Of a stretch of 57,746 bases of DNA, positions 4,049 to 12,527 are shown one piece after another. Numbering within the stretch: position 1 is the first letter of the stretch; every line of letters begins with the position of its first letter. This stretch comes from Thermoleophilia bacterium (GTDB lineage Bacteria > Actinomycetota > Thermoleophilia > RBG-16-64-13), in assembly GCA_040768135.1 (NCBI GenBank), contig JAXGNF010000007.1:1-57746 (forward strand), in the 5' to 3' direction. Position numbers and translations under genes: made by a program. The notes beneath the pieces are model-generated. The model ran no database searches and was not told the DNA's origin. It saw only the letters and a program-made list of their open reading frames with translations.

Positions 4049-4075
4049 TTATCGGTCACACCCGGGACCAATAGA
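4049..4075 (-). promoter_or_regulatory. Putative sigma28/WhiG-type promoter for mglBA
   Basis: ACCGATAA -10 box (4049-4056); weak -35 TCTAT 14 nt upstream; the 11-mer ACCGATAAGGG is identical to the one upstream of pilT. Confidence 0.5.
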
Positions 4076-4133
4076 CGCCAAAACTGCTGTGCTATCATGA
4101 CGACCAGCCGGTAGTGGCGAGAAAGGAGCGCAT

Positions 4134-4517
4134 GTGAACCCAAAAAACCTCAAGTACCACCGGGAGCACGACTGGGCCCACATAGCCGGCGATACCGCCG
4201 TTTTCGGTCTCACCAGCTATGCCCAGGAGACGCTTGGCGACATAGTCTTCATCGAACTCCCCGAGGTAGGCAAAGACGTCACTGCGGGGACGCCATATGC
4301 TGAGGTGGAGTCGGTCAAGGCCGTATCTGAGGTATATGCGCCGCTCAGTGGTTCAGTGGTAGAGGTCAACGAAGAGGTCGTCGATGCCCCCGAGACTATC
4401 AACGAGAGTCCGTACGAAGACGGGTGGCTCATTAAGGTCAAGTTGAGCGACCCCGCAGAGATCGATACGCTCATGACAGAAGAGGAATACGCAGAGTTTC
4501 TCGCCGGGCTTGAGTAA
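4134..4517 (+). CDS. gcvH: Glycine cleavage system H protein
   Basis: EVESVKAVSEVYAPLSG lipoyl-Lys motif, PYEDGWLIKV; AAAGGAG RBS. Confidence 0.95.
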   Translation: MNPKNLKYHREHDWAHIAGDTAVFGLTSYAQETLGDIVFIELPEVGKDVTAGTPYAEVESVKAVSEVYAPLSGSVVEVNEEVVDAPETINESPYEDGWLIKVKLSDPAEIDTLMTEEEYAEFLAGLE

Positions 4518-4520
4518 CAC

Positions 4521-4543
4521 GCCTCAGGCACAACCTGAGGTGC
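4521..4543 (+). terminator. Hairpin after gcvH
   Basis: CCTCAGG-cacaa-CCTGAGG stem, no U-tract. Confidence 0.35.
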
Positions 4544-4590
4544 ATTGTCGCACAGACGAGCCGCGGCTCGTCATAGGTCTCTACTGTAGG

Positions 4591-4619
4591 TTGAAGGTTT
4601 TGGGTAGGACCGCTATAGT
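4591..4619 (+). promoter_or_regulatory. Housekeeping-sigma promoter, probably giving a leaderless rsiG transcript
   Basis: TTGAAG-N17-TATAGT; the GTG start at 4626 lies 7 nt after the -10 box with no SD. Confidence 0.65.
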
Positions 4620-4625
4620 GAGAGT

Positions 4626-9800: not shown

Positions 9801-9812
9801 CCTATTCGCCCC

Positions 9813-9839
9813 TTATCGGTTCTCTTGGCCACATCTCGC
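9813..9839 (-). promoter_or_regulatory. Putative sigma28/WhiG-type promoter for pilT
   Basis: ACCGATAA at 9813-9820, 12 nt upstream of the GTG; -35 weak. Confidence 0.5.
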
Positions 9840-9855
9840 CGCGTAAGGACTCTCG

Positions 9856-11592
9856 CTAGACGATGACCCGGGAGATCTCTTCAATACTGGTCACTCCCTG
9901 CAGGACCCTCTCGAGTCCGTCCTGGCGAAGGGTGACCATCCCCTCGGCTTCTGCCACCCGACTTATCTCATCGGCACTCTTGCGCTCAACAATGAGTCTT
10001 TCGATGGCTTCGCTCACGGTCATGACCTCATAGATGCCCACGCGTCCCTTGTAGCCGGTTTGATTGCAGCGCGGACAGCCCACGGCTCGATGAAGATCGA
10101 TCTCCTCCCAGTTATCGACCACCTTCTCGGGAAAATCGAGGCGTTCAAGCATGTCGCGCGTGGTCGGGTAGGGCTCTTTGCAGTATTCGCACAGCCTACG
10201 GACCAAACGCTGAGCAATGACGCAGTCCACCGCAGAAGCCGTGAGAAAAGGCTCCACCCCCATCTCGGTCAGGCGCGAGAGAGCCCCGGGAGCGTTGTTC
10301 GTATGTAGCGTCGAGAGGACCAAGTGGCCCGTCAGCGCCGACTCAATGGCAATCTGAGCCGTCTCGCGGTCGCGGATCTCGCCGACCATGACGATGTCGG
10401 GGTCGCACCGAAGGATAGAGCGCAGACCGGAGGCGAAGGTCAGGCCGGCTTTTGGGTTTATCTGAACCTGATTGATACCCGTCAGGCGGTATTCCACCGG
10501 GTCCTCCACCGTTATGATGTTCTTCTCGGTGGTATTGAGAATATTGAGAGTCCCGTAGAGCGTCGTCGACTTGCCCGAACCGGTGGGGCCTGTCACCAGC
10601 ACGGCGCCGTAAGGTTTGGTGAACGATCGCGTGTACCGTGACAGAGCGAGATCGGAAAATCCCAGGTCTTCTAAGCGCATCATGACATTTGACCGATCGA
10701 GCAGACGGATGACGATCTTCTCTCCGTAGACGGTCGGTAGAGAGGCGACGCGCATATCGATAGGACGGCCGCTGACCACCAGTCCGATACGCCCATCTTG
10801 GGGAACACGGCGTTCGGCGATATCGAGGTCGGCCATGATCTTGAGGCGCGATAGGACACCCGCCTGCAGGCGCTTGGGGATCGTCATGATCTCGTGTAGT
10901 ACGCCGTCGTGGCGGAATCGGACCAAAAGGTCCTTTGCCTGAGGTTCGAAGTGAATATCGGACGCTGCTTCGTCGGCCGCACGAGCGATTATGCCGTTGA
11001 CCAGTTTGACCACGGGCGCAGCGTCGACCTGCTCTCGTATGTCGCGGAGTTCGCCCGGGGTGGTTTCGTCGTCGGGGATCTTGCCGTCTATGTCTTCGGT
11101 GATCTCGTCTTCGGCACGACGAAGATTACCCAGCATGATGTTGATGTCTTCGGCGCTCGCGATGGCCGGTTCGATATCAAATCCTGTCAACATCCTCAGA
11201 TCGTCGATCGCTACGATGTTGGAAGGATCGGCCATGGCGACAAGCAGAGTGTGCTCGTTGGAAAAACCAACAGGGATGGCCGCGTATCTCCGGGCGTCTT
11301 TCTCAGAAATGAGGTCGGCCGTGACGGGGTCGACCGTGGCGCCCGCTAGGTCTAGGTACTTGACCCCGAGACGTCTGCCCAACGCCTCCAGAAGCTGCGT
11401 CTTGGTGATCCAGCCTTTGGATAGAGCTATGGTGCCGATGCGCTCGTGCGATTCGAGTTGTTCGGCCAGGGCCTCGTTGACCTGCTCGACAGTCAACGCC
11501 CCCATGTCGACCAATATCTCCCCGGTCCGCTTGCCGGACGGCTTCCTCTGCTGCAGTTTCTCCTCTCGCGCAGCCTGCATTCCTTCAATCAT
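9856..11592 (-). CDS. pilB: Type IV pilus assembly ATPase PilB with N-terminal MshEN domain
   Basis: Walker A GPTGSGKST, ASDIHFEP, RCDPD, tetracysteine LCEYC..CPRC; ATG 11592 overlaps the aroE stop (ATGA). Confidence 0.95.
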   Translation of the reverse strand: MIEGMQAAREEKLQQRKPSGKRTGEILVDMGALTVEQVNEALAEQLESHERIGTIALSKGWITKTQLLEALGRRLGVKYLDLAGATVDPVTADLISEKDARRYAAIPVGFSNEHTLLVAMADPSNIVAIDDLRMLTGFDIEPAIASAEDINIMLGNLRRAEDEITEDIDGKIPDDETTPGELRDIREQVDAAPVVKLVNGIIARAADEAASDIHFEPQAKDLLVRFRHDGVLHEIMTIPKRLQAGVLSRLKIMADLDIAERRVPQDGRIGLVVSGRPIDMRVASLPTVYGEKIVIRLLDRSNVMMRLEDLGFSDLALSRYTRSFTKPYGAVLVTGPTGSGKSTTLYGTLNILNTTEKNIITVEDPVEYRLTGINQVQINPKAGLTFASGLRSILRCDPDIVMVGEIRDRETAQIAIESALTGHLVLSTLHTNNAPGALSRLTEMGVEPFLTASAVDCVIAQRLVRRLCEYCKEPYPTTRDMLERLDFPEKVVDNWEEIDLHRAVGCPRCNQTGYKGRVGIYEVMTVSEAIERLIVERKSADEISRVAEAEGMVTLRQDGLERVLQGVTSIEEISRVIV

Positions 11593-12455
11593 CCTTCTTC
11601 GTACTTGATACTGGCCCTCATTGCATCCAAGGGCGGCTCGTTGCCCGTCCACAGACGATAAGTGTGTCCGGCCTGCAACAGGAGCATCTCGATGCCGTCT
11701 ATGGCACGGACCCCGCGCTCTCGGGCCTCCCGTACAAGATGAGTAGGCCCTTTGCCGTACACCAAATCGACCACAGCTAGGCCGCTGTGCAGAATATCGA
11801 CAGGTATCGGCAAGTCCTTGACCTCAGATGTCAACCCTACAGACGTGGCATTCACCAGTAGGTCGGCACCGAGAGCAGCGGCCACGAGATCGGAGTCAGA
11901 GACCGCGTAGCATTCGGTCGGACCCCACGTGTCGGCCACGCGGCACAGAGCCTCCGCACGCGAGAAGGTTCGATTGAATACACCGACGCTTGCAGCTCCC
12001 TCAGCCACAAGCGCCGCCACCACCGCCCGAGCTGCGCCCCCTGCGCCGGCCACTACACAGCGGAGCCCACCGGCACCCTTGGGGACCACGAGTCTGAGAG
12101 ACTCCGAGAAACCGGCCACGTCGGTGTTGTATCCCTTAAGGCGTCCTTGGTCGTTTACGACCGTGTTGACCGCTCCCAACCGGTCTGCGGCAGGATCTAC
12201 ATCATCCAACAGGTCGAGAGCCGCCTCTTTGTGGGGGAGTGTGACATTGACCCCTCGTACGCCCAAAGCCCGAATTCCCGAGAACGCGTCGGCCAGATGT
12301 TCGGGCCGGACATCGAAAGCGAGATACACGAAGTCCAACTTCTGGGCTTCGAACGCTGCATTTTGAATTAGAGGAGACAGGGAGTGGGCCACAGGGCGCC
12401 CTATGAGACCCACTACCCGCGTGTGGGCCGTGATCGTCGGTTGCGGTTCTTGCAT
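11589..12455 (-). CDS. aroE: Shikimate dehydrogenase
   Basis: HSLSP, NVTLPHKE, GAVNT, NTDV, GAGGAARA, NATSVG; start ATG 12455. Confidence 0.93.
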   Translation of the reverse strand: MQEPQPTITAHTRVVGLIGRPVAHSLSPLIQNAAFEAQKLDFVYLAFDVRPEHLADAFSGIRALGVRGVNVTLPHKEAALDLLDDVDPAADRLGAVNTVVNDQGRLKGYNTDVAGFSESLRLVVPKGAGGLRCVVAGAGGAARAVVAALVAEGAASVGVFNRTFSRAEALCRVADTWGPTECYAVSDSDLVAAALGADLLVNATSVGLTSEVKDLPIPVDILHSGLAVVDLVYGKGPTHLVREARERGVRAIDGIEMLLLQAGHTYRLWTGNEPPLDAMRASIKYEEG

Positions 12456-12498
12456 CGGCACCCCTTCCACTGTTGTGTTTGGCCCATAGACACGGAGG

Positions 12499-12527
12499 TT
12501 ATCGGACAGCGGAAATGCCGGCCTCTG
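12499..12527 (-). promoter_or_regulatory. Putative sigma28/WhiG-type promoter for aroE-pilB
   Basis: TCCGATAA at 12499-12506 in the mltG-aroE gap; -35 weak. Confidence 0.4.

Follow-up and report, generated by a model that had tools for sequence, protein, structure and literature searches.

The question raised by this locus is whether the type IV pilus genes of an uncultured Thermoleophilia bacterium, together with a Myxococcus-like MglAB polarity module, form a regulon that is read by a sigma factor of the sigma-28 (FliA/WhiG) family and switched by cyclic di-GMP (c-di-GMP) through RsiG. The stretch of DNA analysed, referred to here as the window, comprises 57,746 nt of contig JAXGNF010000007.1 (assembly GCA_040768135.1), for which an original prediction had placed sigma-28-type -10 boxes upstream of mglB, pilC, pilT and aroE-pilB. 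With a probability estimated at roughly 60%, the pilus motor genes carry two conserved sigma-28-type promoters that would be controlled by RsiG and c-di-GMP by analogy with Rubrobacter radiotolerans, one of them (P_pilC) in the spacer between pilT and pilC and the other (P_pilB(int)) inside the coding sequence (CDS) of aroE.

Conserved elements in the pilus motor genes

The window was compared with 31 species-level syntenic loci, found with an RsiG profile, from metagenome-assembled genomes (MAGs) of uncultured Actinomycetota, Thermoleophilia and Gaiellales, and genes were identified with Pfam and NCBIfam models. The window was itself matched by MAG contigs of GCA_040771365.1 and GCA_964447185.1, and RsiG identity among the footprinted loci was 56-79%. 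The gene order mglA-mglB / gcvH-rsiG-FHA-ftsR-apt / pilC-pilT-pilB-aroE-mltG-ruvX-alaS was the same in nearly all 31 loci, so that rsiG does belong, as predicted, to a conserved neighbourhood with pilBTC, and this near-uniform synteny made phylogenetic footprinting possible. Site conservation was counted over 28 species for pilC, 27 for both the aroE-internal and the aroE upstream sites and 30 for mglB. The features concerned are as follows.

7298-7338, minus strand: hairpin after pilC, with a 14-bp G+C-rich stem (fold -57.5 kcal/mol, z=-2.8)
7400-8614, minus strand: pilC, T2SSF platform protein (Pfam T2SSF, E=4e-69)
8664-8697, minus strand: P_pilC, predicted promoter, conserved and sigma-28-like
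8736-9800, minus strand: pilT, retraction ATPase (Pfam T2SSE)
9856-11580, minus strand: pilB, extension ATPase (Pfam T2SSE, E=6e-143, and MshEN); the 574-aa gene call is also found in L001 and L002
11589-12455, minus strand: aroE, shikimate dehydrogenase (Pfam Shikimate_dh_N, SDH_C and Shikimate_DH); the 288-aa gene call is also found in L002
11792-11825, minus strand: P_pilB(int), predicted sigma-28-like promoter within the aroE CDS

P_pilC consists in the window of the -35 block ACTTGAG (8695-8689, with TTGA at 8693-8690 in the WhiG register), a 16-nt spacer and the -10 GTCGATAG (8673-8666), giving a predicted transcription start site (TSS) at about 8659. Of 28 species, 25 have the bipartite element gCT(T/A)nAG-N14-RRYCGATA at 45-88 nt 5' of pilC, its spacing fixed and the flanking columns unconserved; CGATA was present in all 25, preceded by G in 19 and C in 21, leaving the CGA core intact, and in the -35 block the C, T, A and G each occurred in 24. 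Read in the WhiG register the element is T-N2-A, N16, G(C/T)CGATA, the -35 being TTGA, TTCA, TACA or TATA within CT(T/A)nAG and flanked by C and G. A two-block model built from the pilC-type -35 block and the -10 block of the clade returned P_pilC as its sole hit in the window (score 22.3, next best 10.8). A sigma-A reading of the element was rejected because no TAnnnT follows it at any spacing and the bases past CGATA vary. The hairpin at 7298-7338 is likely the terminator of pilC, in which case pilC would be the only gene driven by P_pilC. A G-rich motif, GTGGGGGAG(G), was additionally observed at 8708-8720 (minus strand), at a variable distance of 10-45 nt 5' of the pilC -35, where 22 of the 25 species have a run of at least four G.

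The second element was absent from the boxes originally listed. Sister lineages L037, L043 and L044 were found to carry TAAA-N15-GCCGATA(A/C), with the -10 GCCGATAA, at homologous aroE codons (L038 has a TCAA form there), and the same position was therefore examined in the window's clade. There, GTCAAGGA...CCTGTCGATAT lies about 220 nt 5' of pilB in 27/27 species, CGATA being present in every one; in the window it reads TCAA (11821-11818), N16, GTCGATAT (11801-11794), upstream of the pilB ATG at 11580 and with a predicted TSS at about 11787. The promoter proposed for aroE-pilB is consequently retained in part, in that pilB does have a predicted, conserved sigma-28-like promoter, but one located inside aroE (11794-11821) rather than at the box upstream of that gene. 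Since the site falls within codons for V-K...P-V-D, conservation was tested at synonymous positions. Across the 104 conserved-residue codons of AroE the mean third-base identity was 0.56, and only nine codons reached at least 0.9; five of these nine make up the -35 and -10 blocks of P_pilB(int), compared with 4/99 elsewhere (P about 1e-7), and the 11-codon stretch with the highest synonymous conservation in aroE is the site itself.

When the pilC and aroE-internal site sets were merged into a combined model, the two highest scores in the window were 32.2 at 11792-11825 and 27.0 at 8664-8697, with 12.4 for the next best, and the boxes upstream of mglB, pilT and aroE each scored below 9; in related loci totalling about 560 kb, the P_pilC and P_pilB(int) positions alone recurred. 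Both sites have a spacer of N16, within the 15-16 nt expected for sigma-28 promoters, and an intact CGA core, in the register T(A/C)AA-N16-GCCGATAA; as its -35, P_pilB(int) has TCAA, and P_pilC has the variants given above. P_pilB(int) would drive pilB and probably pilT, and pilB would also be reached by read-through from aroE.

Three minor observations concern the same models and sites. An extra GCCGATAC is present in the spacer of P_pilB(int) (11805-11812, minus strand) in the window's species only, L004 having GCCGGTGC there. The weak combined-model match scoring 12.4 is at 53310-53343 (minus strand; GCTCAG...GGTCGATAC), in the gap 5' of a 148-aa gene and an Asp23/FakA/DegV operon. A further match, GAGGTCAAGGAGCAGCTTG...ACCGATACCG, occurs in three related species (L028 at 2918, L034 at 2909 and L021 at 2169, plus strand), a few kilobases 5' of a nucleotidyltransferase gene and beyond the region covered by the window.

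RsiG and the sigma factor

The regulator and the sigma gene of the window are placed as follows.

4134-4517, plus strand: gcvH (Pfam/NCBIfam)
4626-4916, plus strand: rsiG, 96 aa (Pfam PF22802)
4923-5708, plus strand: FHA/zinc-ribbon protein gene (Pfam/NCBIfam)
5722-6474, plus strand: ftsR, MerR type (Pfam/NCBIfam)
16770-17615, minus strand: SigB/SigF/SigG-type sigma gene (TIGR02980)

The product of rsiG matches PF22802 at 47 bits (cutoff 27) and aligns across the c-di-GMP motif with the RsiG of R. radiotolerans (PDB 7LQ2/7LQ3/7LQ4; E=2.5e-7). It is of the single-motif type and is encoded 4-7 kb from the pilus promoters; 150 homologues of about 92-96 aa were collected, all with PF22802, and the E, S, R, H and D of the motif E-x3-S-x2-R-x3-H-x3-D were invariant in 24/24 aligned clade homologues. 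By analogy with R. radiotolerans, a c-di-GMP-loaded RsiG dimer would sequester the cognate sigma factor and keep both promoters off, and low c-di-GMP would release it and raise the synthesis of PilB, PilT and PilC. The gene is inserted in a widespread actinobacterial row of gcvH, FHA (GarA/OdhI-like) and MerR (FtsR, Rv1828-like) genes at 4134-6474 (plus strand), a placement kept in 31/31 loci. It is preceded by a sigma-70-type promoter, TTGAAG-N17/18-TATAGT (4591-4626, plus strand), strongly conserved across about 30 species, nearly all of which have it, and the rsiG mRNA is probably leaderless, since the GTG start lies 7-8 nt past this -10.

The original prediction held that the cognate sigma factor is encoded outside the window, and in agreement with this no sigma-28 gene was found among the window's genes. 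The only sigma gene present, which had been overlooked in that prediction, is that at 16770-17615, the rest of the window being housekeeping; it was the only match to WhiG queries of the window and was rejected as a FliA/WhiG member, falling below the TIGR02479 FliA_WhiG cutoff (125 against 189.6) and passing the TIGR02980 SigBFG model (297.6 against 234). This gene adjoins alaS and is also found in L001 and L002. Two small genes lie 5' of it (17616-18086 and 18064-18309, minus strand), the product of the first having a faint anti-sigma match (RsbA-family model, E=0.005, 16 bits where the cutoff is 210). The WhiG-hit loci L035, L036 and L039 were set aside as not belonging to this clade because they are 70% G+C Actinomycetota whose elongation factor G (EF-G) is only about 52% identical to that of the window, and a query made of regions sigma-2 and sigma-4 of R. 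radiotolerans WhiG, taken from PDB alignments, gave no clade contig among the 120 of 843 matches listed.

Several points weigh against the preferred reading. Neither the window nor any of the fetched loci (+/-10 kb) yielded a gene of the FliA/WhiG family. In three other Actinomycetota the true whiG adjoins an EF-G paralogue, and in the 521-nt gap (44631-45151) 5' of the window's EF-G paralogue (42543-44630) a search for remnants of whiG gave only noise. The -35 of P_pilC deviates from TAAA/TCAA, this clade has H (24/24) where the c-di-GMP motif E(X)3S(X)2R(X)3Q(X)3D has Q, and some of the conservation of P_pilB(int) stems from the protein sequence VK...PVD. As to the gap at 44631-45151 itself, it contains no convincing gene, only an 81-aa open reading frame at 44837-45082 (minus strand).

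A different sigma factor was encountered in six sister loci, in which the order is aroE-pilB-pilT-pilC-sigma. Its group-3 genes, here called sigma-Pil, are located as follows.

L030, 12366-13238: pilC-linked group-3 sigma gene
L024, 16180-16954: pilC-linked group-3 sigma gene
L037, 8001-8741: pilC-linked group-3 sigma gene
L038, 8001-8825: pilC-linked group-3 sigma gene
L043, 7001-7741: pilC-linked group-3 sigma gene
L044, 7001-7870: pilC-linked group-3 sigma gene

It is possible, though unlikely, that both promoters are read by this unclassified sigma factor, perhaps autoregulated and partnered by RsiG, with its gene elsewhere in the genomes of the window's clade, which lack it at the position after pilC. 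The gene order is consistent with such a role, as are the presence of rsiG within a few kilobases of the sigma gene in L030, L024 and L038, the canonical internal promoter 5' of an operon that includes sigma-Pil in L037, L043 and L044, and the absence of a sigma-28 gene near these loci. However, sigma-Pil is closer to SigB/F/G (163-179 bits, cutoff 234) than to FliA/WhiG (88-91, cutoff 189.6) and passes no NCBIfam cutoff, its second-best model being the cyanobacterial SigF NF005644, also below cutoff. The promoters of SigB/F factors are not known to resemble CCGATA. RsiG is known to bind only WhiG (PMC8325347). A partnership of RsiG and the pilus promoters with sigma-Pil, in place of a canonical WhiG, is decidedly unlikely; were it true, the c-di-GMP/RsiG switch would govern a second sigma family using sigma-28-like promoters, in an autoregulatory pilB-pilT-pilC-sigma operon.

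Coding constraint and the other proposed boxes

A further possibility is that neither conserved element is a promoter, the one inside aroE reflecting nothing but protein and codon constraint and that between pilT and pilC being a regulator site or an RNA signal. VK and PVD are indeed conserved AroE residues in this clade, and the conserved GTGGGGGAG 5' of P_pilC suggests additional regulation there. This explanation is nevertheless very unlikely, as third-base invariance at the rare codons CCT and GAT exceeds that of the rest of aroE, the same two blocks occur at the same spacing in two unrelated contexts (the pilT-pilC spacer and the aroE CDS), and the sister lineages have altered the residues to G-K...A-D while retaining a perfect sigma-28 consensus.

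All four boxes of the original prediction were located on the minus strand exactly where it had placed them.

4049-4056, minus strand: mglB box, ACCGATAA
8666-8673, minus strand: pilC box, GTCGATAG
9813-9820, minus strand: pilT box, ACCGATAA
12499-12506, minus strand: aroE-upstream box, TCCGATAA

The 11-mer ACCGATAAGGG common to the mglB and pilT sites was likewise recovered, in exactly two copies (4046-4056 and 9810-9820). With up to one mismatch it has 2 matches against 0.9 expected, a count reached in 22/100 shuffles; CCGATAA has 8 copies, with 4.4 expected (8 being reached in 7/100 shuffles), and YCGATAR, the pattern truly common to the four boxes, 25 times against 20.1 expected. Four of the eight CCGATAA copies are intergenic where 1.0 is expected, a mild enrichment (Poisson P about 0.02); the intergenic copy at 53448 (plus strand) faces no gene, and the CCGATA 6-mer shows no intergenic enrichment (5/31 against 3.9 expected). 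Statistical support for the boxes is weak, and chance alone explains much of their pattern. An Rfam scan of the window returned only a 6S RNA and a flavin mononucleotide (FMN) riboswitch, with no match at the boxes. Among relatives the boxes fared unequally: the pilC box is conserved, as described above, whereas those of mglB and pilT are confined to the window's own species and the CGA core of the aroE-upstream box is kept in only 6/27 species. The genes and elements concerned are the following.

2882-3466, minus strand: mglA, with P-loop GCGLCGKT and motif LYTVPGQ
3477-3983, minus strand: mglB, Robl_LC7 (Roadblock) domain (E=3.7e-10)
4030-4038, minus strand: TTGTATACT, -10-like element of mglBA (predicted TSS about 4023)
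12496-12549, minus strand: aroE upstream element, comprising block CCAnnnTCnnACCTTGGnnnAG (about 12549-12523) and the -10-like TAACCT (12501-12496)

The gene calls made originally for RsiG, MglB, MglA, pilC, pilT, pilB and aroE were borne out by Pfam models and motifs. For the polarity module these are the TVPGQ motif, whose Thr is a hallmark of the MglA family (PMC3000849), and the P-loop in MglA, the Roadblock/LC7 domain in MglB and the order mglB-mglA; the NCBIfam MglB model gave 68 bits, under its cutoff of 200. Outside the window, the mglB box was seen solely in L001 and L002, contigs of the same species; it was absent from at least 27 related species and had a -35 block score of -8.6 in the two-block model. 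Upstream of mglB, the relatives instead keep (C)TTGTATACT, 33-49 nt 5' of the start, with T, A, T, A and C each present in 30/30 species and the final T in 29/30; no conserved -35 was found there among the 30 species. A sigma-70-type scan of the window returned GTGACC-18-TATACT, the -35-like GTGACC of which overlaps the mglB box, and mglBA are predicted to be read from this invariant housekeeping-type -10.

The pilT box was similarly restricted to the window and same-species contigs (L001-L003) and has no -35 block (score -14.6). In all species pilB and pilT are 35-55 nt apart, and the only conserved feature of this gap is the ribosome-binding site (AAGGGG/GGAG); in the window, the 3' end of the box abuts the site AAGGGG (9814-9809), and GGGG, one half of the 11-mer shared with mglB, is that ribosome-binding site. 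It appears probable that pilT lacks a promoter of its own and is co-transcribed with pilB. As the mglB and pilT boxes occur in their own species only, and the relatives keep TTGTATACT at the former position and nothing but the ribosome-binding site at the latter, the proposed inclusion of MglAB in a WhiG regulon lacks comparative support.

Upstream of aroE the conserved consensus is GC(G/T)(G/A)TAGTCTGC, with T, A, C and T near-invariant, preceded by block CCAnnnTCnnACnTnGGTnnnAG. The proposed box TCCGATAA overlaps TAACCT, a member of the conserved TAnnCT, and species without CGATA have CGGTA, CTGTA or CTATA. A sigma-28 reading of this element was rejected, since conservation extends to TAnnCT but not to the CGA core; a conserved promoter-like element with TAnnCT as its -10 appears to serve aroE itself. 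Its upstream block TCnnACCTTGGTnnnAG (12523-12549, minus strand) resembles ATCTCCACCTCAGGTTGAAG at 4575-4600 (plus strand), just 5' of and overlapping the rsiG -35, a likeness that may represent a shared operator or UP-like element.

That all four boxes are working sigma-28 promoters in this species, MglAB polarity control having recently joined a WhiG regulon, is the least probable of the explanations and an extremely unlikely one. In its favour, the mglB and pilT boxes score in their -10 halves as well as pilC does against the clade -10 block (13.2 and 12.3 against 12.5), intergenic CCGATAA is mildly enriched and the synteny of mglBA with rsiG and pilBTC is constant. Against it, both boxes are species-restricted with negative -35 scores and combined-model scores below 9, an invariant alternative -10 lies about 20 nt downstream of the mglB box and the pilT box abuts a ribosome-binding site in a 55-nt gap.

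The remaining genes annotated near this locus are the following.

370-2880, plus strand: sugar nucleotidyltransferase/mutase gene (Pfam/NCBIfam)
6664-7182, plus strand: apt, convergent with pilC, directly past the hairpin
continuing to 16766, minus strand: mltG, ruvX and alaS

Between apt and pilC there is an AT-rich inverted repeat, ACATAATG...CATTATGT, at 7200-7230, and a similar element, TTGACATAATATATATTATCG, was seen beside the sigma gene in L038. The 6S RNA is at 20433-20588 (minus strand, 69.7 bits) and the FMN riboswitch at 56705-56823 (minus strand, 110 bits), 5' of riboflavin genes.

Relation to known pilus and polarity systems

In R. radiotolerans, an (RsiG)2-(c-di-GMP)2-WhiG switch governs type IV pilus genes, and 12 WhiG-type promoters with mapped starts are known, of which three lie within the pilus cluster (Schumacher et al. 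2021, PMC8325347). The present system is like it in the single-motif RsiG of about 90 aa, in having predicted sigma-28-type promoters within a pilus cluster of several transcription units and in its basal actinobacterial host; it differs in that no cognate sigma factor was found in the window or loci, in the H for Q of the c-di-GMP motif, in the location of one promoter within aroE and in the pilC -35, CT(T/A)nAG rather than TAAA. For RsiG-regulated WhiG2 a consensus of T(A/C)AA-N16-GCCGATAA with an invariant CGA core has been reported, with predicted WhiG sites in the pilus clusters of several Actinomycetota families (Denis et al. 2026 preprint, PMC12871210). That survey and the present data have in common the N16 spacing, the invariant CGA core, the T(A/C)AA form of the -35 at P_pilB(int) and pilus clusters as predicted targets. 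Having covered intergenic regions of cultured families, with no mention of Thermoleophilia, Gaiellales or MglA, the survey would by its rules miss a CDS-internal promoter and most of the pilC -35 variants; neither PMC8325347 nor PMC12871210 mentions MglA/MglB.

The MglA-MglB modules of Myxococcus xanthus and Thermus thermophilus share with that of the window the order mglB-mglA, a Roadblock MglB, a TVPGQ MglA and a genomic association with type IV pilus genes. The module described here differs in having its own invariant -10 and nothing that ties its transcription to the sigma-28-type promoters. In Synechocystis, the group-3 sigma factor SigF is needed for pilA1 expression, which resembles sigma-Pil in being a group-3 sigma dedicated to pilus genes and through the second-best hit of the latter to NF005644. 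Sigma-Pil differs in scoring below cutoff and in being absent from the window, and the reported Synechocystis SigF promoter is not known to resemble CCGATA.

The attractive claim that MglAB polarity control joined the regulon is thus removed as unsupported; as to the sigma factor that would read the promoters, no WhiG gene was found in the window or the fetched loci, and a distinct pilus-linked sigma is present in sister lineages. The aroE-internal site indicates that a promoter can hide within a housekeeping gene, where regulon searches limited to intergenic regions would miss it. Under the preferred reading, the system would add to the already known RsiG/WhiG-to-pilus circuit, and the c-di-GMP/RsiG/sigma-28 control of pili, experimentally tied so far only to Rubrobacter, would extend to about 30 species of an uncultured Thermoleophilia lineage.

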